The notes beneath the pieces were generated by a model. That model did no database searches. It was not told the DNA's origin and saw only the letters and a list, made by a program, of their open reading frames with translations. The translations under genes and the position numbers were made by a program. This document shows positions 2,631 through 29,419 of a stretch of DNA of 64,000 nucleotides, in pieces. This DNA is from an uncultured delta proteobacterium (lineage in GTDB: Bacteria; Desulfobacterota; WTBG01; CAIYCZ01; CAIRTM01), in NCBI GenBank assembly GCA_963804955.1, contig CAWDSQ010000010.1:8570-72569 (forward strand). The letters are read 5' to 3'. How positions within the stretch are numbered: position 1 is the first letter of the stretch; each line of letters starts with the position of its first letter.

Positions 2631-3656
2631 TCATGGGCCGTCCGGTTGCTGCTGCCGGACTTTGGGTGCAGCTTTTAACACGGTACCGCCCGGCATGAGG
2701 TGGGCTTTGATTTTTTGCACCATGTCAGCCCAGGCGGCAGCGCCAACGCTCTGCTCATTGATAATCATATGGCGGGCGATTGCGGCATCGGTAGTATTGT
2801 CTTTTACTATGCTGACAAGGTCCCACCGGTCAAACCCATTATCGCTGACGAACTCCTGTAGATTCTCGAAGGATACGAATTCATCCTCCTGATCCATGAA
2901 AAGGAGCGTCGGCACATTGAGCCGGGGGCCGAGATTTGCCTCAAAATTCCTGATTGCGTCAAAAAGAGCAGTATAGCCAGCCACGGGCGTGCCGTCATTG
3001 GCACGCTGATTTTCAGGGGCTTCGCTGTCGATGACAAGCTCGGGGAAAGGCTTAAGCGGCCTCAGATGATACCCGATGGACGGATGGAGCGTAAGGGCCG
3101 GAGCCAAAAGCAGCATCCGATCAAAATGAACGCCGGGCTTGGCCGCCAGCAGGTCGCAGCCCAGCAGGCCGCCAAGCGAGTAGCCGACAAAATATAAGGG
3201 CACGCCGAGTTTGCGGGCCCGGTGCATGGCTTGCACATAGGCCTGATGAACTTCATTGAGCCATAAAAAATACGCAACGCTCTTGAAGGATTCAAGGCGG
3301 TCGCGCTTATCATCGGCAGGGCGGCTCCCCCGGCGAATGAAATTAGCGCCATGGCCCCGCAGCGAAACGTTCAGCGCTTCGATGCCTGCACTGTTCAGAA
3401 TGGCAATAATGGGCTCCATCATTTCCGGCCTTATGTTTAAGCCATGCACAATCAGCGCGATAGCAATGGGCTTTTTATAAGAAGCGGATTTAAACCAGCG
3501 GCTGCAATGATCCTGACGGGCAATAAGCTCTTGTATGAAGGCGTTTGCCCCTGCAGGAGCTATGCGGGAAAGGTCGCCACTATACATATAAATACAGGCG
3601 GCAACAGCCGCCGCTGCAGCGAATCCAACCAGCACGAGCCTTCGATAGGATTTCAT
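2631..3656 (-). CDS. Alpha/beta hydrolase (lysophospholipase/esterase-like) with N-terminal signal or anchor
   Basis: HGLN oxyanion motif, GYSLG nucleophile elbow, candidate Asp (DEFV) and His (RHM), hydrophobic N-terminus. Confidence 0.85.
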   Translation of the reverse strand: MKSYRRLVLVGFAAAAAVAACIYMYSGDLSRIAPAGANAFIQELIARQDHCSRWFKSASYKKPIAIALIVHGLNIRPEMMEPIIAILNSAGIEALNVSLRGHGANFIRRGSRPADDKRDRLESFKSVAYFLWLNEVHQAYVQAMHRARKLGVPLYFVGYSLGGLLGCDLLAAKPGVHFDRMLLLAPALTLHPSIGYHLRPLKPFPELVIDSEAPENQRANDGTPVAGYTALFDAIRNFEANLGPRLNVPTLLFMDQEDEFVSFENLQEFVSDNGFDRWDLVSIVKDNTTDAAIARHMIINEQSVGAAAWADMVQKIKAHLMPGGTVLKAAPKVRQQQPDGP

Positions 3657-4252: not shown

Positions 4253-4493
4253 GGTTATTTCCAAAGCTGAACCTGTGTATGGTTGTTAATTTCATTGCAC
4301 AATTTTGTCATTTCGATTGCAGGGAGTCCGCAGGTTGCGTACTCGCATCAATCTTAGACTGAAGTGAAATTATGGCGTTAGGATTTCTCATCCCGCTTTC
4401 AGCGGGATTCGAAATGACAGCAAGAGCAATTACGACAAAGGGTACATACGCTCTTGTCCAGAATAAGGGGGTAGTTCAGCTTAGGAGATAACC
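4253..4493. mobile_element. MITE-like element, family A, copy 1
   Basis: 20-bp terminal inverted repeats GGTTATTTCCAAAGCTGAAC / GTTCAGCTTAGGAGATAACC (18/20 match). Flanks TATATTC/TATATTA. Internal REP-like hairpin. Confidence 0.6.
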
Positions 4494-4537: not shown

Positions 4538-4591
4538 TTAACATTTTTTTAACACAGCAATAATCCCCGCATAATTTTTATTTCATAACAT
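4538..4591 (+). promoter_or_regulatory. Pho-box-like promoter (upstream copy)
   Basis: TTAAC 4538, TTAAC 4549, ATAAT 4560, ATAAT 4571; -10 TAACAT at 4586. Confidence 0.6.
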
Positions 4592-4644
4592 AAGCCCGGC
4601 ATTCAGCCATGCCCCGCAGACGCAGCACGGGGCTTCCATCTTAT

Positions 4645-4698
4645 TTAACCGAAAATTAACCCGCGCTTTATTTGCCGTTAACTCTCCACGGGTATTGT
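4645..4698 (+). promoter_or_regulatory. Pho-box-like promoter of the TonB cluster
   Basis: TTAAC 4645, TTAAC 4656, TTTAT 4667, TTAAC 4678; -10 TATTGT at 4693. Confidence 0.8.
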
Positions 4699-4735
4699 TT
4701 AATCAAAAATGCACATCTCAGAGAGGAGCACCTGC

Positions 4736-5485
4736 ATGAAAAAAAGACACCTATGGCTGCTGGCGTTAATGCTGGGTATGGCCCCGGCAACGCAGGCCGC
4801 GCAGCCCGGGCAGATCAAGCAGACCATCGATCAGTCCATTAAAACCCGGGAAACGACCCAGAAAAAAGCCGCCGACTGGCAGGGCAATAAAGAGCGGATG
4901 AAGAACCGCTACTTTCAGTTGAAAGAAGCCCTTGAGATGACCGGGCTTGAGCTGACTCATATGCAGGAAGTGACGGCCAAACAGGATGCCTACCTGGTGC
5001 GTACACGGCGCAAGGTGCATGAAATGGAAAAAATGGGCCGCGAGCTGCAGCCGTATCTCAACCAGCAGGTTGCCCGCCTGTCCGATCACATTAAAAAAGA
5101 TCTGCCGTTTCTGCCGGAGGAACGCAGCGCGCGGATTACAACCATGCACGGCATCTTGAACGACCCCGAGATACCCTTGAGCGAAAAGCTGCGCCGCACC
5201 TTCGAGGCAATGCGCGTGGAAATGGACTATGGCAAATCAATTGAAACGACCCGCACGGAGATCGACTACAAGGGGCAGAAGGTTTTGGTGAACATGCTGC
5301 GTCTGGGCCGTACAGCCCTGCTGATGCAGACCATTGATGAAAAGGAATCAGGCCTGTATGCCGGAGGAACATGGGTGCAGCTGCCCGGGCAGTACGGCGC
5401 GGAGATAAAGAAAGCCATGGAAATAACCCAGCGCCGCAGGCCTGTCGACTTTGTAAACCTGCCCCTTCGGGAGATCAAACAATGA
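4736..5485 (+). CDS. DUF3450-family periplasmic protein (TtpB-like)
   Basis: GAGGAG RBS, signal peptide, coiled coil, DLPFLPEERSARI and LRLGRTAL motifs; first gene of the exbBD/tonB cluster. Confidence 0.8.
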   Translation: MKKRHLWLLALMLGMAPATQAAQPGQIKQTIDQSIKTRETTQKKAADWQGNKERMKNRYFQLKEALEMTGLELTHMQEVTAKQDAYLVRTRRKVHEMEKMGRELQPYLNQQVARLSDHIKKDLPFLPEERSARITTMHGILNDPEIPLSEKLRRTFEAMRVEMDYGKSIETTRTEIDYKGQKVLVNMLRLGRTALLMQTIDEKESGLYAGGTWVQLPGQYGAEIKKAMEITQRRRPVDFVNLPLREIKQ

Positions 5486-6927
5486 AGCATATCGTATTTT
5501 GTGTAGCGCTGCTGCTGTGCACGATTATGTGCCGCGGCTGCGCCTGGGCCGAAGATAACCAGACCGCGTCGGCCGCCACATCACAGCAGATCACCAGCGC
5601 CATCGATGAAGCACAACGCAAAGCCGATGAAGACGCAAAAAAGGCGCGGGAAGAAGCAGCGCTGAAGGAAGCCGAGGTTATGGACCAGCAGGGCACGCTC
5701 CAGGCGACATTGGAGCGTCTTGAAGCTGAAAAAAAAGCTCTGGACGAAAAGCTCGATACGGCAAAAAAACTCTATGAGCAAAACGAGCAGGAAACCGCCC
5801 TGCTGCAGAAGCGCAGCGAGGAGCAAAAGGGCCAGGCCGACGAGATAGCAGGGTCCCTGCGCGGTATTGCCCAGGACCTGGGCACGTCCATCAGCCAGTC
5901 TCTGGTGTCCGGCGAAACGCCGGGCCGCAGAAAAATCCTCGAGCCCCTGGTGACGCAGAACGAATTTCCCTCCTTTGAAGCCATCGGCGGCATGGCCGAT
6001 CTCATGTTCGAGGAAATGAGCCGCAACGGCAAAATTTCCACCACCGCCATGGCCTTCACCGATGACGCGGGCCGCGAGACCCGGGGCGACGTTGTGCGCA
6101 TAGGCATGTTCAATGCCCTGTGGAAAAAAGACGGCAAGGTGGGCTATCTGGAATATTCGCCGGCCAAGGAGACCTTTTCGCAGTTTTCCGTAAAAATGCC
6201 CGGCGCCTATCTCGGCGAAGCCAAACAGTTTACGGCTGGTGCGTCGCAGGGGCTTTATCTTGATCCGTCATCGGGAGGCGCCTTCCGTTTCATTTCCGAC
6301 ATGCCCGACTGGTGGGAAGAGCTGAAATCAGGCGGCTCCCTCATGTGGCCTATCTGCCTGTGCGGAGTCATCGCCGTCATTCTGGCGATCGAGCGCTTTA
6401 TCACGCTCATGCGTCACAGCAAAGCCACGGCGCAACTTGCCGATGCCGTCACGCCGGTGCTGCAGCGGGGCGACTGGGACGCGGCGCTGCGCATAAGCAA
6501 AGGCAGCAGCATCGGCCTTGCGCGCGTTCTTGCCGCCGGCATCAACCACCGGCAGGAGCAGACCGAGGTGCTTGAGTCGGTCATGGAAGAATCCATTCAG
6601 AGCATCCGGGGCCCCCTTGACCGCAATATGGCCAGCCTGCAGATTATCGCCGTGGTGTCGCCGCTGCTGGGGCTGCTGGGGACCGTCACCGGCATGATTT
6701 CAACCTTCAATATGCTCACGATCTACGGCTCAGGCGATCCCCGGCTCATGTCGGGCGGTATTTCCGAGGCCCTTGTCACCACCGAATACGGCCTGTTCAT
6801 ATCCATTCCCGTAATTCTCGTGCACGGCTACTTTCAGGGCAAGGTGGGCGACATTATTGGCCGCATCGAGGAAAAAGCCATGACGCTGGTCAATTCCGTG
6901 AAAAAAATCAAAAGGCAGGCCGCATGA
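5482..6927 (+). CDS. Large MotA/TolQ/ExbB-family protein (TtpC-like)
   Basis: ATGA overlap with the previous gene, signal peptide, coiled coil, C-terminal SPLLGLLGTVTGMI and GGISEALVTT motifs. Confidence 0.9.
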   Translation: MKHIVFCVALLLCTIMCRGCAWAEDNQTASAATSQQITSAIDEAQRKADEDAKKAREEAALKEAEVMDQQGTLQATLERLEAEKKALDEKLDTAKKLYEQNEQETALLQKRSEEQKGQADEIAGSLRGIAQDLGTSISQSLVSGETPGRRKILEPLVTQNEFPSFEAIGGMADLMFEEMSRNGKISTTAMAFTDDAGRETRGDVVRIGMFNALWKKDGKVGYLEYSPAKETFSQFSVKMPGAYLGEAKQFTAGASQGLYLDPSSGGAFRFISDMPDWWEELKSGGSLMWPICLCGVIAVILAIERFITLMRHSKATAQLADAVTPVLQRGDWDAALRISKGSSIGLARVLAAGINHRQEQTEVLESVMEESIQSIRGPLDRNMASLQIIAVVSPLLGLLGTVTGMISTFNMLTIYGSGDPRLMSGGISEALVTTEYGLFISIPVILVHGYFQGKVGDIIGRIEEKAMTLVNSVKKIKRQAA

Positions 6928-7517
6928 ACTGGGAAATATCCACCTGGGAGTATCTGGCGACAGGAGGGCCCGTGATGGTGCCCCTGCTGCTGGTCTCGCT
7001 TGCCATGGCGTTCATGATAGCCGAACGGTTTTTGTATTTTGCGGGGATCGAGCGCGGCGATATCAACGCCGATGCCGTCATCAGGGGCATTGAAAACAAT
7101 GCCCCGGCTGCCGGCGGCGGGCTGTGCGCAACGGTGCTTGATCGGCTGCTGGCGGCCCGGGCCGTTTATGGCGAGCTTGATCTGCGGGTGCTCCATGAAA
7201 CCGTGCAGGGCTTTCTTCCCGAACTGCGGCGGGGGTTCAATATAATCGCCTGCCTGATAGCCGCGGCTCCGCTGCTGGGGCTGCTGGGGACCGTGACCGG
7301 CATGATCGAAACCTTTAATGTCATGAATATTTTCGGCACCACCAATCCCAAGGCCATGTCCGGGGGCATATCCGAGGCCATGATCACCACGCAGTACGGT
7401 TTGGTGCTCGCCATTCTCGGGATGTATGTGCAGATGTTTGTAGAAAAACGGGCGCGCCGCTGCGAGCACATGGTCGAGGAGCTGACGCGCCACATTATAA
7501 GGAAATTTCAGCTATGA
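6924..7517 (+). CDS. exbB: ExbB/TolQ proton channel subunit
   Basis: APLLGLLGTVTGMIETF and GGISEAMITTQYGL motifs. Confidence 0.9.
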   Translation: MNWEISTWEYLATGGPVMVPLLLVSLAMAFMIAERFLYFAGIERGDINADAVIRGIENNAPAAGGGLCATVLDRLLAARAVYGELDLRVLHETVQGFLPELRRGFNIIACLIAAAPLLGLLGTVTGMIETFNVMNIFGTTNPKAMSGGISEAMITTQYGLVLAILGMYVQMFVEKRARRCEHMVEELTRHIIRKFQL

Positions 7518-7934
7518 TCCGCTCACGACGAAGGACCGAAGGGGACAAGCCCATTGAAATCAACATGGCGCCGCTGATCGACATGACCTTTCTGCTGCTG
7601 ATTTTTTTCATCGTAACCACCAGCTTTGTGAAAGAAACAGGCCTTGAGGTGAACCGGCCCTCGGCCAAAAGCGCGGAGAGCAAGGAAAAAAGCACCATCA
7701 TGGTGGGCGTAAGCAGGCAGGGGTTCATTTACATGGAAAACCGCTCCATTGATTTGCGCTCCGTGCGGGCGAATGTCGAAAAGGCCATGGCCGATAACCC
7801 CGATGCGGGCGTCATCAGTCGTGGCGGACAAGGAAAGCTCCACGGGCCTTGTGGTGAATGTCATCGACCAGTGCAGGCTTGCCGGCGCCAAGGCGGTATC
7901 GATAGCAACCAAGAGGGAAGACGAGTCCACATGA
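7514..7934 (+). CDS. exbD: ExbD/TolR (apparent frameshift near 7815)
   Basis: EINMAPLIDMTFLLLIFFIVTTSF. The C-terminus VVADKESSTGLVVNVIDQCRLAGA lies in another frame ending at 7934. Confidence 0.88.
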
Positions 7935-8581
7935 GCGTTCTGCAGCCTGTCCACCGGCGCTATTTTGCGGCACTGGCCATAGCCTGCGTTGCCACCGCCC
8001 TGTGCCTGTTCGTGCTGCCGGTATCGCTGCGCTTCAGCGCGCCGATGAAGAAAGATCTGCTGCGCGAGGCCCTGCAGCTTGCCGATTACCGCAAGCCGCC
8101 GCCGCCGCCGCCGAAAAAGCAGGAGCAGCAGAAAAAGCCCGAAGCGCAAAAGGTTCAGCCCAAGCTCAAAAGCTTCATGCCGAAAATGGACATGGACTCT
8201 TCGGCCCTTGCGGGCAAGTTTCAGTTCGACCTCGGCCTTGCCGGCGGCTCGGGCGCGGGTGTCGGGATGAATCTGGGGGCAAAGATATTCGACGAGTCAA
8301 AAGTCGACGCCAAGCCCGTGGCCCTGTTCCGGACGCAGCCGATCTATCCGGCAAAGGCGCAGGGCGAACAGCTGACGGGCCGCGTGAGTTTCCGGTTTCT
8401 GGTTGACCGCGACGGCATGGTCAAAGACGTTGAGATAGCAAGCGCTCAGCCGCCCGGTATTTTTGATGATGCCACCATAGCGGCTGTCAAGCAGTGGCGT
8501 TTTCAGCCGGCAAAAGTCAAGGGAGAGGCGGTCGCCTGCTGGTGCCAGTCGTCAATTAAGTATGAACTTGATGTCGAGTAA
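7931..8581 (+). CDS. tonB: TonB energy transducer
   Basis: N-terminal TM helix, Pro-rich KPPPPPPKK, C-terminal YPAKA...VKQWRFQPA domain. The ORF track fuses it to exbD because of the frameshift. Confidence 0.9.
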   Translation: MSVLQPVHRRYFAALAIACVATALCLFVLPVSLRFSAPMKKDLLREALQLADYRKPPPPPPKKQEQQKKPEAQKVQPKLKSFMPKMDMDSSALAGKFQFDLGLAGGSGAGVGMNLGAKIFDESKVDAKPVALFRTQPIYPAKAQGEQLTGRVSFRFLVDRDGMVKDVEIASAQPPGIFDDATIAAVKQWRFQPAKVKGEAVACWCQSSIKYELDVE

Positions 8582-8599
8582 AGGAATAGGAGGAGAGAT

Positions 8600-9819
8600 A
8601 TGAAAAAATTAGTGGCTCTGATGGTTCTGTGCGGTTTCATGGCAGCGGGCAGCGCGGCAGCCGACGACGGCGAGATCAAGTGGGACACCGTGCCCGATGA
8701 GACCAAAACAGCGCTCTATGAAGCGCAGCAGGATATGAACGGCGGCAAGATGGATAAAGCGCTGAGCGACCTTCTGAAATTTCAGCAGAAGCGTCCAAAT
8801 ACAACCATTTTCTGGTCGAGTTCAATATCGGCACGCTCTATGGCCTGCAGAAGCAGCCGGATAAGGCAATTGCGCATCTGGAAAAAGCCGTGGAGATGGA
8901 AAAATCCTACAGCCCCATCTGGATGAACCTCGGCAAGCTGTACTACCAGCTGCAGGCTTTCGACAAGGCAGGGGCCGCGCTGGAGCAGTCGTTCCGGTGC
9001 AGCGTTCAGCAGGAAACCGACATACTCTACATGGCCATGGCGTCCTATTACCAGGCCGGCGATCTGCCAAAGGCCACGGCCCTGGGCGAGGAGCTGGTGC
9101 AGGTATTCCGCCGCGACAGCCCTGAAATCGTGAGCCTGCTTGCGGGCATTTATATACAGACCGGCAATTTCGGCAGCGCCGTTACCATGCTGGAAACGCT
9201 GCTTGAGAAAACCCCCTCCGATGACAAGCTTTGGAAAATGCTGGCCCAGGCGCATTTCAAGAACCAGAAATACCGCGAGGCGGCCATAGCCTATGAAACC
9301 TTCGGATATCTCAGGGAGCTGGGCCGCGATGAACTGATAGTCATGGGCGACCTGTACACCATGGTGGGCGTGCCCCTGCGGGCCGCGCAATACTATGAGC
9401 TGGCCCTGCAAAACGGCGGCACTGCCGATGAACAGGAAAAGCTGTCGGTTGCCTACTACTGCGCCTATGAATTCGACAAGGCATCCGCTGCCGTCGATGG
9501 CGCCCTTAAGGAAAAGCCAACGGTGGAGCGGATGCTGTTGAAGGCGCAGCTGTGCTACCTGCAGGAGCGTTTTGTGGAAGCCCAGCAGCATTATGTGAAA
9601 GCGGCGGAGGCCATGTCCAAGGACGGCCATGAATGGCTTATGGCGGGCTACTGCGCCCTGCGCGGCGGCAATACCAGCCGCGCCCGCGAGCTTTTAAGCA
9701 AGGCCGCCGAATTTCCGACGCAGCGCCAGGATGCTCTTGCCATGCTCAAGGCGCTGCAGCCGGCCGATGATTTTAAAAAGGCGATGCAGGAATTAAAGGA
9801 AGCGCAGCAGCTGCTGTAG
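8600..9819 (+). CDS. Secreted TPR-repeat protein (TtpD-like); frameshift near 8795
   Basis: AGGAGG RBS, signal peptide, helical TPR-like repeats across two ORFs; last gene of the tonB cluster. Confidence 0.8.
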
Positions 9820-9853
9820 GGTTCTCAAAAACTGATATGCAGGGTGGACGAAC

Positions 9854-12732
9854 GTGACGCTGAAACAGAAGATGGAACCCCGGAGGCAGTGGCTGCACAG
9901 GCGCCTGGTGAGAGCCTGCACAGGCATGTGCCTGCTTGCCGTGCTGTGTTTGTTTGTCCGTGATGCCTCAGCCCAGGCGGCAGGCGGCATTCGCGGCACG
10001 GTGACCGATGCCGCGAAAAAACCCCTTGCCGAGGTTGGCGTGGAGATATCGGAAGTATCGGGTAAACCAGTGCAGGGCGGGTTCGTGCTCACCGGCCGCG
10101 ACGGCGGCTTCGTGCTGCAGGTGCCCCCAGGAGCCTATGACCTTAAAGTAACCGCTCCTGGCCATGAGCCCAGAACATTCAAGGGATTGAACGTGAAAGC
10201 AGGTGGATTTACCGAGCAGCAGGTAACGCTTTCGGGCTCGACCGTGCAGATAGATGAAATGAAGGTTGTGGGAAAGCCCCGGCAGGCCAGCGATTTTACC
10301 CAGATGATGAAGCGGCAGGCAGCCGCGGGCATTATGGACAATATTGCCGCCGATACCATTAAGAAAATTCCCGAGTCCGATGTGGCGGGCATTCTCACGC
10401 GCATGCCCGGCGTGGTTATATCCGAGGGTAAATACATGCAGGCCCGGGGCATGACCAAGCGCTATAACAATACCATCCTCAACGGCGCCGTGGTGCCGAC
10501 GACGCGGCCCAATGAAAAGCTCACGCCCCTTGATCTTTTTCCGGGCGGCGTTGTCGATTCCATCAGCGTTGCCAAGACCTTTACGCCCGACCTGCCGGGA
10601 AATTTTTCCGGGGGCCTGTGCCAGATAAAAACCAAGGCCCTGCCCGACGGCCCGCAGGTGAAGCTGGGCTATACGGCCAAATACAATACCGAGACAACGG
10701 GCGAGGATTATCTGACCTACAATGGCGGCGGCAAAGACTGGGCCGGCTATGACGACGGCACGCGCAAGCTCCCCCATATCATTCCCGGAATAAAAATAGG
10801 GAACACTGACAAGGACACGGCCGGCTCCGTGGGCGTCAGCGCACGAGAGCGCGAAAAATTAGGCGAATCGTTCGACAATACCTGGAACACGCACAGGCGC
10901 AATGCGCATCTGCAGTCCGACTATGAGTTTACCGCCGGCGACCGCATGGGCAAGTTCGGCCTGGTCATGTCAACCTATTATAAAAGCGACATCAAGAACT
11001 ATATTGATGAAGAAAGAACCTATTACGCGTATGCCCCGGCTTCCCCCGGCGGCCAAGATCCTGCCCTCAGCTATGATTTTGAGCGATCGCGACTAATCAT
11101 CAAGGAAGGCGGCCTGCTCAACTTCGGCTATGAATTCAGCGCCGACCATAAAATGTATTTCACTAATTTTTACAACCGCAACACCACTGACGAGGCCCGC
11201 ATCGCCCTGTCGACGTACCACACCGACGACGCAAGCTATTACAAGACGACGAAACTGCGCTATATCGAGGAGGAATTCTACTCGGGCGGCGTGGCGGGCG
11301 ACCATAGGTTTGACGAGCTTTTAAAAAGCCGTGTCAAGTGGCGCTATAATTTTTCCCTGGCCCGGATGAATGATCCCGACCAGCGGTCGAATACGTATGA
11401 ATTTGTTAGAGATATTAATGGAAATCCTACGGGGGAGTACATTCTGTCATCAAAAAAGGCCGAGGCTCTGCTGCGGCAGTTCTCCGAACAGGATGAGGAC
11501 ATGGATGATCTGGCTGTTGACTGGTCTTTGGAAGCGCCGAGCCCCTGGTCATGGCTGGAGCCCAAATTTCAGTTCGGCGCCGCCTACACAAAGCGCGACC
11601 GCGATTTCTATATGCGCCGGTTCGCCTTCGGTACTAGTAAGTCTCGACAGGTACAAATTTGATTTGACGCAGGACCCCGAAACCCTGCTGCAGCCCCAGA
11701 ACATCAACCAGCAGGGATTTTATCTGCAGGAAACAACTCTCCCCAATGATACCTATACAGCCGGGGAAAGGCTGGCGGCAGGCTATGCCATGCTCGACTT
11801 CACCTTTTTTGAGCAGGTCCAGCTGCTGGGCGGCGTGCGCCTCGAGCGCGACAAGACCAGTCTCGACTCCATAAGTCTGTTTGATCCTAATAAAAGACAT
11901 CAACACCACGCTCATTGACAATACCTGGGAGCCTTCGGTGAACCTGAAGTACAGCCCCTGTTAAAGACATGAATTTCCGGCTGGGGTTCAGCCGCACGGT
12001 CTCGCGGCCCGAGTTCCACGAGCTTGCGCCCTTTCTATTCTACCGATGTCGTCGGCGGCTACGGCATGAAGGGCAACCCGGACCTGCAGGTCGCGAAAAT
12101 CAAGAATTACGACTTTCGCTGGGAATGGTTTATCAACCGGCAGGACATTCTTGCCGTGAGCCTGTTCTATAAAGACATCACCAATGCCATAGAGCCCAGT
12201 AATTCTAGAACGAAGAATGGGGTCCATAACTACACCAATGCCGATGACGCCTGGCTCAAGGGCGTGGAGTTTGAGGTGCGCAAAAACCTGGGCTTTGCCT
12301 GGTCGGGAGTGCGGCACTGGACCATTACCGGCAATTATGTCTATGCCGAATCGGAATCAACCATTCGGCGAACATACCTCGAATTTCATCCCCTTAACAG
12401 ACAAGCGGCCCCTTGTGGGGCAGCCGGAAAACATGGTGAACCTGGCCCTTGAGTACGATAACCCCGACTGGGGCTTCACTGCCCGCTTCATGTATCAGTA
12501 CACTGACGAGCGCGTGGATCAAATCGCCGGCAATGATCTGCCCAATATTATTGAAAAAGAGCATGACCGGTTTGACCTGGTGCTTATCAAAACCTTCGGC
12601 AAGCACTGGGACGTGAAATTTACCGCGCAGAATCTCAATAATGAGCCTTACACCGTGACGCAGGGCGGCCAGATTTATCATACCTACAAGGTAGGCCGGA
12701 CCTTCAAGCTGGGAGTTTCCTGGAAATGGTAG
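9854..12732 (+). CDS. TonB-dependent receptor with N-terminal carboxypeptidase-regulatory-like domain; several frameshifts (about 11640, 11900-11960, 12370)
   Basis: GIRGTVTDA domain, plug motifs (LTRMPGVVI, ARGMTKRYN, LDLFP, KTFTPDLPGNFSGG), barrel motifs SRTVSRPEFHELAPF and NLNN, C-terminal LGVSWKW. Confidence 0.9.
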
Positions 12733-12759
12733 CAAAAACAAAACACTGTGTAGGGCTAT

Positions 12760-12944
12760 GGGTATCTCCCAAGCTGAAGCTCTATGAGGCAGCCGGGAGA
12801 AATCCCGGGCTGAAGTAAAAACAAGGGCGTTAAGAGTTCTCATCCCGCTTCCAGCGGGATTCGAAATGACAGCAAGGGCAATTACGACGCAGTCTCAAAA
12901 GCAGGTATCCAGAAATCAGTATTACTGCAGCTTTGTGGATGACC
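12760..12944. mobile_element. MITE-like element, family A, copy 2
   Basis: Ends GGGTATCTCCCAAGCTGAAG / CTGCAGCTTTGTGGATGACC. Shares the internal CATCCCGC...GCGGGATTCGAAATGACAGCAAG block with copy 1. Confidence 0.5.
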
Positions 12945-12970
12945 GGATAATTTTAATAGAATACAAAAAA

Positions 12971-13013
12971 TTAATTCAATGTTAACGCAAAATTAAAATG
13001 CAAATGGTACTGT
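12971..13013 (+). promoter_or_regulatory. Pho-box-like promoter
   Basis: TTAAT 12971, TTAAC 12982, TTAAA 12993; -10 TACTGT at 13008. Confidence 0.7.
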
Positions 13014-13072
13014 TTATCAGAATAGAGGGCTATGCTGCTTGACTGGACTTACCCCTTTACATTGTTTTTTAT

Positions 13073-13237
13073 GGGTATCCACAAAGCTGAACCTGCCGGC
13101 AGGTTCAGCATGTATACACCAAATGGATTCCCGCCTGCGCGGGCATGACAAGATTTTTTAGTCTGTTGCGTTGCAAACTAACATCCCCCCGAAAGCGGGG
13201 CTACAGACACTGATGCGGTTCAGCTTTGTGGATAACC
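13073..13237. mobile_element. MITE-like element, family A, copy 3
   Basis: TIRs GGGTATCCACAAAGCTGAAC / GTTCAGCTTTGTGGATAACC (19/20 match). Contains the REP-like GGATTCCCGCCTGCGCGGGCATGAC. Confidence 0.6.
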
Positions 13238-13338
13238 AGATTGTAGAGAAAGGAGGTGCCGGAGCAAACCAAAAACATGAGAAAAAAAAGCTATCGGGCC
13301 TATTCAAACAACAACGGACACAAAAAGGGAGATATATC

Positions 13339-14930
13339 ATGAAAAAAATATTGAGCGCTATAGCGCTGGCCGCCATGCTGATAACGGCGGCAAACAGTCA
13401 TGCCCAGACGGTCGTGCAGGGACAGATTACCAGCAACACCACCTGGAGCAGCGATGTGCTGATCAGAGGTCCTCTGTTCGTGCGCAGCGGCGCCACCCTG
13501 ACGGTTACGGCAGGCACCACGGTTTACGGCGAAAAGGCTACTCTTGCAGCTCTTATTATCGACCGGGGCGCAAAATTGAATGCCGTCGGCACGATGGACA
13601 ACCCGGTTCTCTTCACCAGCGACCAGCCTGCGGGTACGCAGGAACGCGCCGACTGGGGCGGACTCATCATCAACGGCTACTCAACCCTGAACGTACCCGG
13701 CGGCACGAAATCGGGCGAAGGCGACACCGGCATTTTCGGCTGCACGCCTGGCGTTAACTGCAATGAGGCCGACAACAGCGGCACCCTGCAGTATGTGCGC
13801 GTGGAGTACGGCGGAATACAGTTCACCCCCGATAACGAGCTCAACGGCATCGCCTTCCAGGGCGTGGGCTCCGGCACCACCGTTGACCATGTGCAGGTGC
13901 ATATGAGCAAGGATGACTGCCTCGAGTTTTTCGGCGGTACGGTCAGCGTGAAATACGCGATCATGAGCGCCTGCGGCGACGACTCTCTTGACTGGACCGA
14001 CGGCTGGCGCGGCAATGGCCAGTTTCTGGTGGTGCAGCAGAAGGGCGACGAGGCTGACGCCGGCATCGAGGCCGATAACTATGAGTTTGGACACGACAAC
14101 CTGCCCCGCTCCAACCCCACGCTGTACAATTTGACCGTTGTGGGCGATCCGTGCCATCGGATCAACGAGCACCCGGGGCATGCGCCCCCGCCGCGGCACC
14201 GCGGGCAAGATTCGCAATGCCATCGTCATGGGCTTTGCCACGAATTCAGGCTGCGATATCGATGATGCCGCGACCTTCACTCAGGCAACAGCCGGCAACC
14301 TGGTCATCGACAATAATATTTTCTATAATAACCTCGAGAAGCTTTGCCACCGACAGCGAAGCCTTTCTGGGCACGACCATGCAGAACAATGAGACAGTAA
14401 ATCCCCTGCTGGGCGCACCCTACAACCTGACAGCTCCGGATTTCCGCCCGGCTGCAGGTTCACCGGCCATTACCGGCGCCGTGCCGGTTGCCGCTCCTCC
14501 GGCGGGCAACAGCTATATCATCGCCACCGATTATATCGGCGCGGTTGATCCCGACAGTGACTGGACACGGGCTGCCTGGACCAGCTATGGCACGGCTGCC
14601 TGGTCCCCTGATGATGCAGACGATGACGGCATTTCGAATAGCGTTGACAACTGCCCGACTTCCTACAATCCCCAGCAGCGTGATGCCGACACTGACGGCG
14701 TAGGCGACGTGTGCGATACCACCCCGGGCTGCGGCGGCTGCGGCGAGGCTGCCTGTGAGGATGTTGATGCAGACAACGACGGTATTATTAATAATGTTGA
14801 TAACTGCCCGAGCACGTGCAATGCTCAGCAGCGTGATGCTGATCTGGACGGAATAGGCGACGTGTGCGATACCACGCCCGGCTGCGGCGGCTGCGGCCAG
14901 GCTGCCTGCGAGACGGTCTGTACGCTGTAA
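13339..14930 (+). CDS. Secreted protein A: probable beta-helix domain plus two thrombospondin-type-3-like/GCGGCG modules; frameshifts near 14150 and 14335
   Basis: Signal peptide; PVLFTSDQ, DWGGLII, SGTLQYVRVEYGG, DDCLEFFGGTV and DDSLDWTDGWRG motifs; C-terminal DNCP...[21 protein letters not shown] twice. Confidence 0.8.
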
Positions 14931-14952
14931 TAAACAACGTACATAACAAATA

Positions 14953-14987
14953 AGGATTGAGCTGACCTGCAAGGTCAGCTCAATCCT
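14953..14987. repeat. Perfect 16-bp inverted repeat between paralogs A and B
   Basis: AGGATTGAGCTGACCT-GCA-AGGTCAGCTCAATCCT, with no plus-strand U-tract. Confidence 0.8.
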
Positions 14988-15013
14988 AAATTTATCGAAG
15001 GAGGAAAAGTATC

Positions 15014-16896
15014 ATGAAAAAAATATTGAGCGCCATAGCGATGGCCGCCATGCTGATAACGGCGGCAAACAGCCATGCCCAGACGGTCGTGCAGGGACGA
15101 GATTACCAGCAACACCACCTGGAGCAGCGATGTGCTGATCAGAGGACCTCTGTTCGTGCGCAGCGGCGCCACCCTGACGGTTACGGCAGGCACCACGGTT
15201 TACGGCGAAAAGGCTACTCTTGCAGCTCTTATTATCGACCGCGGCGCAAAACTGAATGCCATCGGCACCAAGGACAGCCCGGTTCTCTTCACCAGCGATC
15301 AACCTGCGGGTACGCAGCAACGCGCCGACTGGGGCGGAATCATCATCAACGGCTACTCAACCCTGAACGTACCCGGCGGCACGAAAACGGGCGAAGGCGA
15401 CACCGGCGTCTTCGGCTGCACGGCCGGCGTTGACTGCAATGAGGCCGACAACAGCGGCACGCTCCAGTTTGTGCGCGTGGAGTACGGCGGCATTCAGTTC
15501 ACCCCCGATAACGAGCTCAACGGCATCGCCTTTCAGGCCGTGGGCTCCGGCACCACCGTTGACCATGTGCAGGTGCATATGAGCAAGGATGACTGTATCG
15601 AATTTTTCGGCGGCACGGTCAGCATGAAAAACGCCATTATGAGCGCCTGCGGCGACGATTCTCTTGACTGGACAGACGGCTGGCGCGGCAATGGCCAGTT
15701 TCTGGTGGTGCAGCAGAAGGGCGACGAGGCTGACCGCGGCATCGAGGCCGATAACTATGAGTTTGGACACGACAACCTGCCCCGCTCCAACCCCACGCTG
15801 TACAATTTGACCATTGTGGGCGATCCGGCCACCGGATCAACGAGCAACCGGGGCATGACCATCCGCCGCGGCACCGCGGGTAACATCCGCAATTCCATCA
15901 TCATGGGCTTTGCCACGAATGCAGGCTGCGATATCGATGATGACGCGACCTTCACTCAGGCAACAGCCGGCAACCTGGTCATCGACAATAATATTTTCTA
16001 CAACAATCTCAGGAGCTTTGCCACCGATTCCGAGGCATTCCTGGGCACGACCATGCAGCACAATGAGACCCGCAACCCGCTGCTGGGCCTGCCCTATGAC
16101 CAGTCGGCCCCGGATTTCCGCCCGGATGCAGATTCACCCGCCCTGGACAACGACACGGTTCCGGTTGCCGCTCCTCCGGCGGGCAACAGCTATATCATCT
16201 CCACCGATTATATCGGCGCTGTTGATCCCGATAATGACTGGACACGGGCTGCCTGGACAACCTATGGCGAGGCTGCCTGGACTCCTGACGACTGCACCGA
16301 TGCCGACGAAGACGGCTACTCTATAGAAGGCGGCGACTGCGGCGCGGTTGACTGCAATGACGGTAATGCCGCCATCAACCCCGGCGCAAACGAAACCTGT
16401 GAAGACGGTGTGGACAATGACTGCGACGGCCAGGTTGATGAAGGTTGCGACAACTGTACCGACGCCGACAATGACACCTATGCCGTTGAAGGCGGCGACT
16501 GCGGCCAGGTTGACTGCAATGACGGTAATGCCGCCATCAACCCAGGCGCAAACGAAACCTGTGAAGACGGTGTGGACAATGACTGCGACGGCCAGGTTGA
16601 TGAAGGGTGCGACAACGCGACAGAGTGCGTCCTGACCGTGCGGCCGGCTACGGTATACAAATTCCTGAGCTGGGTTTTCCCGCTCAGGTTATATTCGCTG
16701 CAGGGCGACGGCAATGCGGTACTCACCTCTGACGACGAACTCGACTGGGGAACTCCGGGGATCACAACATTGAGCGCCCGGGTTACCGGCGCAGCGCGCT
16801 ATCAGGGGCATTATTTTTGTGCGGCCACGGCTTATTGAAGCAGGAACATATGATGTGACGGTAGGCAACTGCGCCGGCACGATCGAAATAAAATAA
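15014..16896 (+). CDS. Secreted protein B: paralog of A with two MopE-like Cys/Asp repeats and a C-terminal beta domain; frameshifts near 15098 and 16795
   Basis: GGAGG RBS; N-terminal ~420 aa very similar to A; DCNDGNAAINPGANETCEDGVDNDCDGQVDEGC twice; corrected end ...YDVTVGNCAGTIEIK with stop at 16896. Confidence 0.8.
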
Positions 16897-16969
16897 GGCT
16901 TTTCCGCTTGCATTGGATGCGGGCTCTGCCTGCATCCAATGCAAGCGGAGTTATTCTGAAAGAATTCTC

Positions 16970-17536
16970 ATGAAGAAGCACTGTTATCAGCAATCAAAAA
17001 AACCGTCCGCCAGACTCCTGTGCACTACTGCCGCCCTCGGCGTTCTGCTGCTGTTCTGCCTTGGCCTTCTGCAGGGCTGCTCTTTCTTCGGAAGCGAGCC
17101 GGACGCGAAAGGCTGGTTCGGCTCCGCCGACGAGCTTGCCCGGGGCGTTGCGCAGGCGCTTGCCGCAAATGACCGGGAGGCGCTTGACCGCTTCCGCATC
17201 AGCCGGGATGAATACATGGCCATTGTGTGGCCCGAGCTGCCGGTCAGCAAAATTGAGCAGTGGAAAAGCCAGTCGGGGTTTGTCTGGTCGCAGCATGCCG
17301 CAAAATCAGACGCGGGTCTGCGTATGATCCTCGGCCTCTTCGGTGGCAAAACTCTCACGATACGGTCCGTCACATGCAAATCGCCGGCGAAGGAATATGC
17401 CACGTTCAAACTGCATGTGCGGCCTGTGGTAGAGGTTGTAGACCAGTCCGGCGCCAAACAGGCTGATCCCGTGCTCGGTACAATTATAGAACGTTCCGGC
17501 CGTTTCAAGGTTTTCAGCTATTCCATCAAAAATTAG
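16970..17536 (+). CDS. Hypothetical lipoprotein
   Basis: Basic N-terminus, hydrophobic stretch, lipobox LLQG-C. Confidence 0.7.
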   Translation: MKKHCYQQSKKPSARLLCTTAALGVLLLFCLGLLQGCSFFGSEPDAKGWFGSADELARGVAQALAANDREALDRFRISRDEYMAIVWPELPVSKIEQWKSQSGFVWSQHAAKSDAGLRMILGLFGGKTLTIRSVTCKSPAKEYATFKLHVRPVVEVVDQSGAKQADPVLGTIIERSGRFKVFSYSIKN

Positions 17537-17549
17537 AAGGAGTTTTTAC

Positions 17550-18080
17550 ATGAAAAAATTTTTATCAGCATCTTATAGTATTTCCCTGGCGGGACTGATT
17601 ATGCTTTGCCTGGCGCTGCCGGCAACAGGGGCCGCTGCGGCCCGTGATGCGGGCTTCCTCGACAACAGCAGTGACAGCCCCAGACACTATGTTCTGCCGC
17701 TGTACCAGTTCGGGTATGAGGTTATAACCGAAGGCACGGCAAATTATACTATTGAACGCACTATGCGCAAAAATTTTCCGTTTGATATGGATATTACGGT
17801 TATTTACGCCTGGGGCTATACGGGAGATAACTTCAACATAAAGGTGACCGATCTCGGCGACAGGGGTGACCGGCTGTTTGCCTGCGCCATAGCAGTTTAC
17901 AACGGCAGAGCAACGACCGAGTGGGGCACCATGTACAGCTCCAGCAGCCAGAATTCTTTCGACGTAACCGTGCCCATGGAGTCGCCGGGGGGCTATATTT
18001 ATCTGCTGTCGGGATATTTTACACCCTCGCTGGGCGAGGAGCCCTTCAGCTACAGCATGACATTAGCGTTTCCGCGCTAG
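17550..18080 (+). CDS. Hypothetical secreted beta-rich protein
   Basis: AAGGAG RBS, signal peptide ending AAAA, mature region rich in aromatic residues and beta strands. Confidence 0.7.
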   Translation: MKKFLSASYSISLAGLIMLCLALPATGAAAARDAGFLDNSSDSPRHYVLPLYQFGYEVITEGTANYTIERTMRKNFPFDMDITVIYAWGYTGDNFNIKVTDLGDRGDRLFACAIAVYNGRATTEWGTMYSSSSQNSFDVTVPMESPGGYIYLLSGYFTPSLGEEPFSYSMTLAFPR

Positions 18081-18157
18081 TCCTTTGAGGCAGAGCGTGT
18101 ATGGGTTCAGCGTATGCAGAATCGTATCACAGGAAGAGCGGTAGCGCGATTGACGGT

Positions 18158-18851
18158 ATGATAAGCAGGCAGAAAAATATTGCACTGGTAGAAGATGACC
18201 CCGATATCGCCGAACTGATCATCCTGCATCTAAAAAAGAGCAGCTATGATGTTACTGCTTTCCCGGACGGCGCAAGCTTCCTGCATTTCCTGGAAACAGA
18301 GGTTCCCGCGCTTGTGCTGCTTGATCTGATGCTGCCGGATATCGATGGGCTTGAAATCTGCAAGATCATGCGCGATCGCGAAATGCTTGCCGCCGTGCCT
18401 ATCTTAATCGTCACGGCTAAAAGCCTGGAGATGGACAAGGTTCTCGGGCTTGAACTGGGAGCTGATGATTATCTGACCAAGCCGTTTTCTCCCAAGGAGC
18501 TTGTTGCGACGGGTCAGGGCGCTCTTGCGCCGGCAGGCGCCGGTGGATCAGCAGGCGCAGCGTATCGAGGTGGGCGGTGTTTTGACCCTTGATCTTGTCA
18601 GGCATGAGCTTACCGTTCGCGACCGGCGCGTCGAACTTACCTTCACGGAGTTTAAAATTCTTGAACTGCTTGCAGCAAAAAAAGGATGGGTGTTCAGCAG
18701 GGAGAAGATTTTAAACCATCTCTGGGGGGAGGGGAAAGCAGTCATTGACCGTACGATTGACGTTCATATACGGCACTTGCGCACAAAGCTGGGATCGGAT
18801 GCGCAGTTCATCAAAAACATCCGGGGCGTCGGGTACAAGGTGGAAGAATAG
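18158..18851 (+). CDS. phoB: OmpR/PhoB-family response regulator (frameshift near 18505)
   Basis: LVEDD, LLDLMLP, GADDYLTKPFS and recognition helix DRTIDVHIRHLRTKL; next to pst/phoU. The symbol is assigned from context. Confidence 0.75.
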
Positions 18852-18926: not shown

Positions 18927-19184
18927 CTAACGGTTGGGCCTTCTGCTTTTTGCTGTTTCGGATTTCAGATATTTTTTTATCTGCCTTGCGGTATCGTTAT
19001 GATTTTTGCCGGCTGCAAAATTTTTTCGGTAATTTCCGTTTCGGGCGATAGTTTCGGCCGCCCTTGAATCAAGTTTCATAATTCCCCGTTTCAGCCAGGC
19101 CCCCGGATCAAAGGCCTGCACTGACTGCGCCGGTAGCACGAAGCATACTGCAACAATGAGTCCAAGAAAAAGTTTGCCTTTCAT
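18927..19184 (-). CDS. Small basic secreted hypothetical protein (85 aa)
   Basis: GGAGG RBS, signal peptide ending VQA, its own Pho-box-like promoter. Confidence 0.65.
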   Translation of the reverse strand: MKGKLFLGLIVAVCFVLPAQSVQAFDPGAWLKRGIMKLDSRAAETIARNGNYRKNFAAGKNHNDTARQIKKYLKSETAKSRRPNR

Positions 19185-19237
19185 AGCCTGCCTCCATCGC
19201 AATGTACAATCATCAGTTTTTCTGTTTCTCTGCAGGC

Positions 19238-19291
19238 AGTATGGCCTTAACGTATTAAGCGGATATAAAAATACGGTTAAGAATGTGTTAA
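19238..19291 (-). promoter_or_regulatory. Pho-box-like promoter
   Basis: Plus-strand ATTAA 19254, ATAAA 19265, GTTAA 19276, GTTAA 19287. Minus-strand -10 CATACT at 19243-19238. Confidence 0.7.
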
Positions 19292-19433
19292 ATCATCAGA
19301 TGGAAGGACTGGGTGTTGGAAATATACGGTCGCATTTAAGGGCTTAATAAAGAAACTAACACTGGGCTGGAGCGAGGCGCAGGCATCCGCAACAGCGGAT
19401 CGGGCAGACACGGGTCTGCCCATGTGAAAAACA

Positions 19434-20087
19434 TCAACTGATAGTATGATGCTTTATCACCCGGCCCTGAAGCATGAAAATGGTGTCTTCGGCGATATTG
19501 GTGGCAAGGTCGGCGATGCGCTCAAGGTTTTCGGCGATCCGCAGGATATTGATGCAGTGGCTTATGATGGAAGGATTTTCCGTCATGAAGGTGATGAGCT
19601 CACGCAAAATCTGGTTGCGCATGTCGTCGATGATGCTGTCGCGGCGGCAGACCTCCATGGCAAGCTGCGGGTCTTCGTTGATGAACGACTCAATGACATC
19701 GGCAAGCATGCCCCGCACCAGCTCGCTCATGCGCGGTATGTCGATGAAGGGCTTGATGGGCGGCACCTGTATGAGCTCCAGGGCATTTTTTGAAATATTG
19801 ACCGCATGGTCTCCCATGCGCTCTAAGGCGGCATTCATATCGTACACCACCAGGATCGTGCGCAGGTCCCTGGCCATGGGCTGAAACTGCGCTATCAGGT
19901 TGGTGCAGGCCTCATCGATATCCAGTTCGAAGCGGTTGGCCTTTGGCTCGTCCTGATCGACCAGCTCCAGCAGCAGTGTTTCATTGCGGCTTACCAGCCC
20001 CTTGACGCTTTTATCAATCATGCGTTCGATATGGGCGCTGAACTGAATAATTTCGCCTTTGAGTTCATTTAATCGTTCCGGCTGCAT
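19434..20087 (-). CDS. phoU: Phosphate signalling protein PhoU (copy 1)
   Basis: QPMARDLR, LERMGDHAVNI and LERIADLATNIAE motifs. Confidence 0.95.
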   Translation of the reverse strand: MQPERLNELKGEIIQFSAHIERMIDKSVKGLVSRNETLLLELVDQDEPKANRFELDIDEACTNLIAQFQPMARDLRTILVVYDMNAALERMGDHAVNISKNALELIQVPPIKPFIDIPRMSELVRGMLADVIESFINEDPQLAMEVCRRDSIIDDMRNQILRELITFMTENPSIISHCINILRIAENLERIADLATNIAEDTIFMLQGRVIKHHTIS

Positions 20088-20112
20088 GGTAGTTCCTTTC
20101 TTGGATTGCGCT

Positions 20113-20141
20113 GTAGGGGCTTATGGCACATACGCCCCTAC
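20113..20141. repeat. GTAG-type REP palindrome
   Basis: GTAGGGGC...GCCCCTAC. Related palindromes at 54231-54279 and 58956-58983. Confidence 0.6.
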
Positions 20142-20149
20142 AATTTGTA

Positions 20150-21744: not shown

Positions 21745-21804
21745 GAGCACTGTATTTCTTTGATTGATTATATAGTCCGGCAAAGCCGTCCCGCAGGGCG
21801 GCTG

Positions 21805-22767: not shown

Positions 22768-22849
22768 TCTTGTTCGCCATGTATGCTTGCTGCTGTTGTG
22801 CGGCAGTAATTTTTGCCGTCATGTCAGCCGCAATTGTTTACGCCAGAAT

Positions 22850-22967
22850 TGATGGTTCCGTAAAAGTCCGAAACTGTCCCTGAACGAAGTGAAGGGTCCG
22901 AAATATGTAAACCAGATTCTTCGCTTCAGCGACAAAATAGTGCTTTTTGACTTTCACGAGAGCATCA
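22850..22967. mobile_element. MITE (family B) inserted between pstS and pstC
   Basis: Imperfect TIRs TGATGGTTCCGTAAAAGTC / GACTTTCACGAGAGCATCA, flanked by the 4-bp direct repeat GAAT (22846-22849 and 22968-22971). Confidence 0.7.
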
Positions 22968-23054
22968 GAATCTGCTTCATAAAACGCAAGTTCCGAAGCG
23001 CGGCCGACAGTTCAAGGGCGTTTTGAGGCGCCGCGCTCCGGCATGCCTGCCGTG

Positions 23055-24107: not shown

Positions 24108-24130
24108 GAGAGTCTCCTTCTCTGGTATTG

Positions 24131-25429: not shown

Positions 25430-25454
25430 AGAGCCTCCTTTCCTGTGCGGCATA

Positions 25455-25923: not shown

Positions 25924-26003
25924 TCCCCTTTTTTCCATTTCCTTCTCCTTTTTAAGATTGAATATTAAATGCGCACTGCTCAGATGCGCACTGCTATGTG
26001 ATC

Positions 26004-26057
26004 ATTTTATCCGCCGAGTGTTAATATCGGTTAATTTTTCTGTTAAGATTCGGTTAA
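26004..26057 (-). promoter_or_regulatory. Pho-box-like promoter of the porin-pstSCAB-phoU operon
   Basis: Plus-strand GTTAA at 26020, 26030, 26042 and 26053 (33 bp overall). Minus-strand -10 TAAAAT at 26009-26004. Confidence 0.8.
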
Positions 26058-26905: not shown

Positions 26906-26914
26906 TGCCGAGGC

Positions 26915-29414: not shown

Positions 29415-29419
29415 AAGGC

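Follow-up and report, generated by a model that had tools for sequence, protein, structure and literature searches.

A candidate Pho-controlled import module with a TonB2-type energiser, beta-helix proteins and a small lipoprotein in an uncultured delta proteobacterium

Described systems and gene content of the locus

Surface or secreted proteins encoded beside a TonB-dependent outer-membrane receptor have been described in Caulobacter, Flavobacterium and Bacteroides, and these pairs are the closest described counterparts of the locus analysed here. The locus comprises twelve genes at positions 4736-18851 (+ strand) of a 64,000-nt stretch of DNA from an uncultured delta proteobacterium of the sulfate-reducer type (assembly GCA_963804955.1, contig CAWDSQ010000010.1, positions 8,570 to 72,569; hereafter the window). 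It is judged likely to be a Pho-regulon module for TonB-powered outer-membrane import, belonging to the widespread kind that combines a CarboxypepD_reg-type receptor with a beta-helix protein. In Caulobacter crescentus, ElpS (CC0170) is a surface lipoprotein that is induced by starvation for inorganic phosphate (Pi) and encoded beside the receptor CC0171; a protease dependent on type II secretion releases it, and its gene stands beside gsp genes, with no dedicated energiser in the accessible part of the account (PMC2996285). In Flavobacterium johnsoniae, the receptor Fjoh_0545 (Plug, CarbopepD_reg_2, and OMP_b-brl_3 domains) and the pectin-lyase-fold lipoprotein Fjoh_0546, together termed 'PUSIV', are encoded in the phoBR cluster with an OprP phosphate porin; both make up an abundant part of the exoproteome, and only Pi depletion induces them, strongly so (PMC8115612). 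In Bacteroides thetaiotaomicron, the pectin-lyase-superfamily lipoprotein BT4056 is predicted to lie as a putative 'lid' on the outer face of the non-SusC receptor BT4055. It is 40% identical to Fjoh_0546 and distantly related to ElpS, and homologues of the two genes are adjacent in 621 genera (bioRxiv 10.1101/2023.03.17.533168). The pair is among the most strongly phosphate-induced systems of Flavobacterium and its beta-helix family is very large, yet no substrate has been assigned to it since 2010.

Dedicated energisers have been described separately. The TonB2 operon of Vibrio consists of ttpB (DUF3450, 255 aa), ttpC, exbB, exbD, tonB, and ttpD (a 425-aa TPR protein); it is controlled by Fur and iron and serves siderophore receptors encoded elsewhere, and the TonB3 variant, which includes a receptor gene in the operon, takes no part in iron uptake (PMC6957404). 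In Pseudomonas aeruginosa, the phdA-pdtB-exbB2D2-tonB4 operon is under the control of PhoB and sigma-VreI and supplies a dedicated ExbB-ExbD-TonB set that is expressed under Pi starvation, so that phosphate-switched TonB sets have precedent. That set is a plain three-protein energiser associated with two-partner secretion and an extracytoplasmic function (ECF) sigma factor, and the accessible text describes no beta-helix/receptor pair with it (PMC4971064). No link between DUF3450- or Ttp-type energisers and phosphate was found in the literature searched, a collection with few subscription journals in which the seven papers that mention DUF3450 were judged by their titles and abstract openings.

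Gene coordinates were refined by tblastn of intact relatives' proteins onto the window, and the open reading frame (ORF) listing together with Pfam and NCBIfam scans bore out, on the + strand, the twelve-gene order of the original prediction. The first unit begins with a TtpB-like DUF3450 protein with a signal peptide (4736-5485; 249 aa, Pfam DUF3450 208.8 bits), which is 57% identical to its orthologue in the related locus L005. It is followed by a large TtpC-like ExbB protein (5479-6927, Pfam MotA_ExbB) that joins a coiled-coil, weakly DUF3450-like N-part to a C-terminal MotA_ExbB channel domain and has orthologues of 411-482 aa in L002, L005, L026, L035, and L041. Then come ExbB (6924-7517; MotA_ExbB 88 bits), whose start overlaps the preceding stop by 4 nt, ExbD (7514-7925; Pfam ExbD on the N-part), TonB (7931-8581; 216 aa, TonB_C 74.4 bits, 53% identical to that of L005), a TtpD-like TPR protein with a signal peptide (8600-9819; TPR families), and a TonB-dependent receptor with CarboxypepD_reg and Plug domains and a 22-strand-type barrel (9854-12732; Pfam, NCBIfam, and tblastn). 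Between neighbouring energiser genes there is either an overlap of 4-7 nt or a short gap, and since all seven genes overlap or nearly abut, the arrangement fits one operon. A proposed second unit contains two paralogous beta-helix genes, A (13339-14930) and B (15014-16896), a small lipoprotein gene (16970-17536), a gene for a small secreted protein (17550-18080), and a gene for a PhoB-like OmpR-family response regulator (18161-18851). L005 repeats this complete order with all genes intact (ExbD 135, TonB 212, TPR protein 409, receptor 957, beta-helix protein 589, lipoprotein 192, secreted protein 190, and regulator 226 aa), and continues after the regulator with a kinase, two Porin_5 genes, and pstS.

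The proposed match of the first six genes to the Vibrio TonB2/TonB3 systems holds, since gene order, domain types, and sizes all agree with the description in PMC6957404: in both, the DUF3450 protein is about 250 aa long, the ExbB-like protein after it is large, and the TPR protein measures about 410-425 aa. The window operon differs from Vibrio TonB2 in that it ends in one specific receptor and carries Pho-type boxes with no recognisable Fur box. The combination with the receptor and the proteins beside it is most likely of the Fjoh_0545/0546 type, in which a CarboxypepD_reg-like and Plug receptor is likewise followed by a pectin-lyase-fold protein beside phoB, and in Flavobacterium also beside phoR and a phosphate porin gene. 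The accessible text on the Flavobacterium cluster, however, lists no TonB-ExbBD genes (PMC8115612), whereas the window has a dedicated set; similarly, that on BT4055/BT4056 mentions no third small lipoprotein, TonB2-type energiser, or Pho boxes (bioRxiv 10.1101/2023.03.17.533168).

Promoter boxes, regulator and related loci

Both units are preceded by Pho-box-like direct repeats, and the boxed promoters originally placed at 4645 and 12971 were recovered there as TTAAC repeats. Upstream of the energiser-receptor operon (4538-4704, + strand), a pair at 4538-4553 is followed by TTAAC starts at 4645, 4656, 4678, and 4699, that is, at spacings of 11, 22, or 21 bp. The second set (12953-12997, + strand), with TTAA cores at 12953, 12971, 12982, and 12993, lies in the 600-nt gap before paralog A. 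The pattern TTAAY-N6-TTAAY has 11 matches in the window against 0.31 expected, a number reached by none of 100 shuffles, and all 11 matches are intergenic. Sites stand upstream of the genes for an 808-aa ORF (2568), an alpha/beta hydrolase (3833), the DUF3450 protein (4538 and 4645), paralog A (12970-12996), a small secreted ORF (19276), and a thrombospondin-repeat protein (42825). A further site, at 26042, lies where a porin-pstSCAB-phoU operon and a phoU-pstSCAB operon diverge, an indication that genuine phosphate-transport promoters of this genome carry the box. It also occurs upstream of the DUF3450 gene in all five Thermodesulfobacteriota relatives (L002, L003, L004, L005, and L041; 45-60% protein identity), and in L005 additionally upstream of pstS and a porin gene.

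The PHO-box consensus of Synechocystis is close to CTTAACCT. Cyanobacterial PHO boxes more generally are described as tandem 8-bp repeats 3 bp apart with a TTTAAA core (PMC7546424). The TTAAC repeats share the defining traits of a Pho box, namely direct repeats phased by 11 bp and a position at pst promoters, PhoB binding being a prediction, and a candidate Pho-box consensus for this lineage can be proposed from them. A search of the window for an Escherichia coli-type Fur box gave no match within three mismatches, with none expected by chance either, so that this is a weak test; a sigma-70 promoter scan gave 11 sites against 9.9 expected and hence no signal.

The regulator, the sole OmpR-type regulator in the window, has TIGR02154 (PhoB) as the best model for its N half (116.8 bits) and as the second-best for its C half (92.2 bits). 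The intact orthologue in L001, a 90%-identical relative, scores 216.6 bits against the TIGR02154 cut-off of 296.2. Among 40 module-adjacent regulators, PhoB was the best NCBIfam model for 27 at E<=1e-62, and the other 13 had no family at that threshold. Identity as PhoB is supported by context, as there is no other OmpR-type regulator in the window and phoU and pstBACS begin 580 nt downstream. A PhoR/PnpS-like kinase follows the regulator in L005 and L073; that of L005 has PnpS (367 bits, cut-off 400) and PhoR (290 bits, cut-off 334) as its best families.

Neighbourhoods were compared by a genome scan with B, in which the best 80 of 300 relatives were retained, 43 of these being flanked on either side by 8 kb or more (fully flanked loci); locus features were detected with profile hidden Markov models (HMMs) built from the window and locus proteins. 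The 80 loci span Thermodesulfobacteriota, Acidobacteriota, Myxococcota, Bacteroidota, Gemmatimonadota, Verrucomicrobiota, and Leptospirales, with none from Caulobacter, Flavobacterium, or Bacteroides. A receptor of this type was found near the beta-helix gene in 70 of the 80 loci (40 of the 43 that are fully flanked), a PhoB-like regulator in 43 (28), a histidine kinase in 24 (14), at least one of PstS, PstB, PhoU, Na/Pi, or Porin_O_P in 17 (10), at least two of ExbB, ExbD, and TonB in 14 (12), and the small lipoprotein in 36 (18). Co-occurrence with pst/phoB, suggested as a check in the original prediction, was seen for the regulator in 28/43 and for the phosphate-transport genes in just 10/43.

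In L073, the receptor, beta-helix, regulator, kinase, and pstSCAB genes stand in a row. In the Flavobacteriales loci L045, L049, and L053, a regulator is followed by a receptor (CarbopepD_reg_2; Plug in two of the three) and a beta-helix lipoprotein of the A/B family, with Porin_O_P and a Na/Pi transporter with a PhoU domain additionally present in L053. This layout matches that of Fjoh_0542-0546, and the probable relation of A and B to the Fjoh pair is drawn from layout, fold, and partner domains.

Thirteen of the 14 energiser loci carry a DUF3450 and a TtpC-like gene; these are L002-L005, L041, six Myxococcota loci, one from an unclassified bacterium, and one from Bradymonadales. A phosphate-boxed TonB2-type energiser joined to the receptor/beta-helix module in three 'delta-proteobacterial' lineages, Thermodesulfobacteriota, Myxococcota, and Bradymonadales, looks new. 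That the module can bring along a TonB2-type motor of its own, placed behind the same boxes, speaks for genuine energised import rather than for a role limited to enzymatic activity or signalling. In the Leptospirales locus L071 (2450-11092), genes for a Na/Pi cotransporter with a PhoU domain, ExbB, ExbD, ExbD, TonB, the receptor, and a beta-helix lipoprotein occur together, which looks like an independent recruitment of a different energiser type to the same module.

The beta-helix proteins and the small lipoprotein

Intact orthologues of the receptor are 920-1042 aa long; their best NCBIfam model is TIGR01782 (TonB-Xanth-Caul) at 171-249 bits against a cut-off of 310, and none scored as a siderophore receptor in NCBIfam. 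Proteins A and B, originally inferred to be Asp-rich binding proteins or metal-dependent hydrolases, are pectate-lyase-like beta-helix proteins with calcium-binding-type repeats. Each has a plain signal peptide ending in SHA|QT with no lipobox and a Beta_helix_4 core (PF28492, 'pectate-lyase like beta helix', by ESM Atlas assignment of the family of B). According to Pfam, A ends in thrombospondin type 3 repeats, and B carries two MopE-type metal-binding motifs, followed by a small C-terminal domain. At the protein level the first piece of A shares 82% identity with B, and DNA identity is 94-96% over the first ~400 nt, from which the two genes are read as recent tandem duplicates. Homologues of B number more than 7,700, a lower bound because the candidate list was saturated.

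The AlphaFold2 model of B (61-row alignment) is a right-handed beta-helix over residues 1-400, with ten-residue blocks at pLDDT 85-99, mostly above 95, and a repeat-rich tail of low confidence. A fold search of the model against the PDB returned just generic tailspikes, pectate and alginate lyases, and AlgG (best E 4.9e-3, none <=1e-3). Invariant acidic residues recur at rung spacing (D172, D173, and E176; D194, D195, and D198; E224 and D226), together with R264. This acidic ladder would fit a metal-bridged binding or catalytic groove.

By analogy, the receptor/beta-helix pair is most likely of the ElpS/CC0171, Fjoh_0545/0546, and BT4055/BT4056 kind, and the system is thus of an already known kind, not an unknown one as had been implied. 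The likeness to ElpS/CC0171, a Pi-starvation-induced surface or secreted protein beside a TonB-dependent receptor, is drawn from the literature only, where ElpS is reported to be distantly homologous to BT4056 and to the Flavobacterium proteins. Fjoh_0546 differs from A and B in being itself a lipoprotein, whereas in the window a separate lipoprotein gene follows the two beta-helix genes with plain signal peptides.

The gene for this lipoprotein directly follows the beta-helix gene. Its lipobox, LLQGC, has the Cys at residue 56 of the mechanically called ORF 16913-17536, and the family is defined by a conserved lipobox and a domain of ~150 aa. No Pfam domain was found in any of the 45 homologues listed, and a 50%-identity library contained 1,550 representatives at E<=1e-3. 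The predicted structure is an alpha+beta fold for which a PDB fold search gave nothing significant (best E 0.048, to the NTF2-like MlaC).

Occurrence of the lipoprotein gene follows the type of signal peptide on the beta-helix protein. Among related loci with a plain signal peptide (32), the lipoprotein gene is present in 26 and absent in 6; among those with a lipobox (35), it is present in 4 and absent in 31. Thirteen loci were truncated or undetermined, and the loci counted are not independent of one another in phylogeny. Of the four that combine a lipobox with the lipoprotein gene, three are from Gemmatimonadota and one is L065, and inspection by eye showed that L044 and L055, counted as plain and lacking the gene, also carry a lipobox. 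A complex predicted for the core of B and the mature lipoprotein scored 0.61, against 0.00 for the best of three controls; among reference pairs, 116 of 157 solved complexes attained a score of this size, as did 2 of 215 mismatched pairs. Since the prediction here was made with our own alignments, these counts apply to it only approximately. The runs agreed in at least 82% of contacts, with a partner pLDDT of at least 82. The model supports binding of the small lipoprotein by the B core, and the lipoprotein appears, on this model, to supply the anchor that soluble beta-helix proteins lack.

No recent work on these lipoproteins was found by the literature search, and as far as that search shows, the partner has not been described before; the split beta-helix/lipoprotein architecture looks new. 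One library protein, P0270 (552 aa), has a diverged beta-helix domain (33% identical to B, E 8e-57) fused to the lipoprotein domain (residues 411-552). Its beta-helix has other residues at several of the acidic positions that are otherwise invariant, and it is a single case for which a gene-calling artefact is possible. The small secreted protein (17550-18080), which has no Pfam or NCBIfam family, belongs to a narrow, lineage-restricted family with 17 homologues including the window's own, and it occurs in 5 of the 80 related loci.

Function, alternatives and accompanying features

The Pho-type control originally proposed is supported by the box at the pst/phoU promoters, the boxes in all five relatives, and a regulator with PhoB as its best family. 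The proposed role in phosphorus scavenging likewise fits, by analogy, the Pi induction of Fjoh_0545/0546 and ElpS, and the PhoB-like regulator in 28 of the 43 fully flanked loci. We agree with the original prediction that the substrate cannot be read from the sequence. Under low Pi, phosphorylated PhoB would bind the 11-bp-phased TTAAC direct repeats and switch on one unit, ttpB-ttpC-exbB-exbD-tonB-ttpD-receptor, and a second, A-B-lipoprotein-secreted protein-phoB, while the neighbouring pst, porin, and other boxed genes would respond alike. A and B would be exported by the Sec pathway with no lipid anchor of their own and be held at the membrane, presumably at the cell surface, by the small lipoprotein. 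They would there capture, and perhaps cut, an anionic, probably phosphorus-bearing ligand by means of the conserved acidic ladder on successive rungs and the C-terminal calcium-binding-type repeats. The ligand would then be handed to the receptor and cross it, powered by the dedicated TonB2-type complex, and phosphate freed in the periplasm would enter the cell through PstSCAB.

A more specific version of this scheme is speculative and, in our estimate, improbable: the beta-helix protein and its lipoprotein dock would form a two-part surface receptor (a 'phosphophore') that captures inorganic or mineral-bound phosphorus (polyphosphate, calcium phosphate, or iron phosphate) through calcium-bridged acidic ladders and feeds the receptor driven by the phosphate-switched TonB2-type motor. 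If true, phosphorus itself would have an energy-driven path across the outer membrane, one widespread among bacteria of sediment and soil. The phosphate-boxed TonB2-type energiser, the split beta-helix/lipoprotein architecture, and the candidate box consensus of the lineage look new; they give genetic and biochemical work concrete starting points and can help to interpret how phosphorus is acquired in sediment metagenomes.

Several points weigh against Pho-controlled phosphorus import. Pho control is probable on the evidence of the boxes and gene neighbourhood, and the box itself is a short motif rich in A and T. Scores of 213-242 bits for the regulator and for all 27 PhoB-best regulators of relatives stay under both curated cut-offs, 296 for TIGR02154 and 270 for the Bacteroidetes PhoB model; the window contains no histidine kinase; and dedicated phosphate-transport genes are within reach in just the 10 fully flanked loci mentioned above. 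Placement of the lipoprotein at the surface is an assumption for Thermodesulfobacteriota, and A and B are tied to ElpS, Fjoh_0546, and BT4056 by analogy of fold, partner domains, and layout. In Caulobacter, ElpS raised extracellular phosphatase activity, yet the purified protein had no such activity; deletion of elpS did not lower phosphatase activity, and CC0171 was constitutively expressed (PMC2996285). Finally, the fold is shared with polysaccharide lyases and tailspikes, so that the ligand could be a glycan.

The strongest alternative, though we regard it as unlikely, is a Pho-controlled module importing something other than phosphorus that is needed under Pi starvation, either a metal (Ca, Fe, or Zn) for phosphatases or oligosaccharides from an acidic polymer, cut by the beta-helix protein acting as a lyase. 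The resemblance to pectate and alginate lyases, the invariant acidic residues and calcium-binding-type repeats, and the effect of ElpS on phosphatase activity all favour it, and plant glycan binding or hydrolysis was proposed for Fjoh_0545/0546 by the authors of that work (PMC8115612). Yet across phyla the module keeps company with genes for PhoB, Pst, Na/Pi transporters, and phosphate porins, no glycoside hydrolase or sugar transporter appeared when the window and the scanned related loci were searched with Pfam, and the same source reports Fjoh_0545/0546 to be repressed under nitrogen and iron limitation.

Alignment of intact relatives' proteins onto the window also revealed 11 frame changes in six of the twelve genes, which the original prediction had not mentioned and which likewise count against a working import module. 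One lies in ExbD (near 7800-7846), one in the TPR gene (near 8800), four in the receptor (near 11635, 11950, 12080, and 12375), two in A, two in B (near 15100 and 16800), and one in the regulator (~18509), whereas the DUF3450, TtpC-like, ExbB, and TonB frames are intact. ExbD of L005 aligns to the window in frame 2 and then frame 3, its TPR protein in frame 2 and then frame 1, and the 355-aa ORF 7514-8581 is an artefact that joins the N-part of ExbD to TonB. If the breaks were real, this copy would be dead, and the locus would be a decaying, non-working pseudogene cluster in this genome, which we hold to be quite unlikely. Broken frames occur outside the locus as well, in pstS, the second phoU, an amidase gene, and an AmiC-type gene, and decay specific to the locus was judged unlikely for that reason. 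Five coding-region insertions were checked against L001 (87-93% DNA identity), two in pstS and one each in the regulator, the gene upstream of the porin, and the second phoU. Each consists of one or two extra bases outside homopolymers, and the frames of L001 are intact at all five sites. Similarity to relatives runs on across every break in tblastn, with no deletions seen there. On these grounds the breaks are read as sequence errors, probably errors of assembly.

That the boxes belong to another OmpR-family regulon, or that control is by iron as in Vibrio TonB2 (Fur-controlled; PMC6957404) and the nearness of pst coincidental, is very unlikely. The sub-cut-off regulator score speaks for it, as does the L005 kinase, whose sensor domain is Cache-like and whose best-scoring families are PnpS or WalK. 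Against it, phoU-pstSCAB in the window and pstS in L005 have the same box in front of them, the window encodes no OmpR-type regulator besides the PhoB-like one, and the lack of an E. coli-type Fur box, which says little, points the same way. Pho-controlled import by a receptor/beta-helix module remains the preferred reading.

The locus is adjoined by a phosphate island (18927-31073, both strands) with two complete pst-phoU sets back to back (19434-31073). The first (19434-25453, - strand) comprises phoU, pstB, pstA, pstC, pstS, and a Porin_5 gene, which precedes the set in the direction of transcription, and the second (26315-31073, + strand) is phoU-pstS-pstC-pstA-pstB-pstB, with two pstB genes. 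A small secreted ORF of 91 aa (18927-19202, - strand) has its own box at 19276-19291 and is kept in L001 (82%) and partly in L003. Beyond the island, an ORF region at 31275-32272 (+ strand) with five 117-nt repeats (motif W..M.SGT.ANLNGVWG) and no family match probably encodes a propeller-like repeat protein that a frame change has divided.

On the other side of the locus, the box at 2568 belongs to the gene of the 808-aa protein (90-2516, - strand), which has no Pfam or NCBIfam family, and the box at 3833 to the alpha/beta hydrolase gene (2631-3656, - strand). Both genes adjoin the module in L002 and L003, where the 808-aa protein is 92-94% identical and the neighbouring genes just 43-68%; ESM Atlas places the 808-aa protein in clusters of Thermodesulfobacteriota hypothetical proteins. 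Farther downstream, a 588-aa protein (40923-42689, - strand) is made of 156-nt tandem repeats encoding thrombospondin type 3 (calcium-binding) motifs. A box at 42825-42840 stands ~140 nt upstream of its gene, and it may be a further Pho-controlled acidic surface protein.

Hairpins with perfect stems of 16 and 20 bp lie between A and B (14953-14987) and between B and the lipoprotein gene (16903-16949), the latter overlapping the start at which ORF 16913 was mechanically called; a role as terminators, attenuators, or mRNA stabilisers is possible. Intergenic repeats of one dispersed family, ~70-100 nt long and with the internal hairpin CCCGCTTYCAGCGGG, are present at 4367-4436, 12819-12888, 54097-54134, and 62483-62520, and also at 53994-54093 / 62356-62455. 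Two of the copies flank the energiser-receptor operon, and the family looks like a REP- or MITE-type element.

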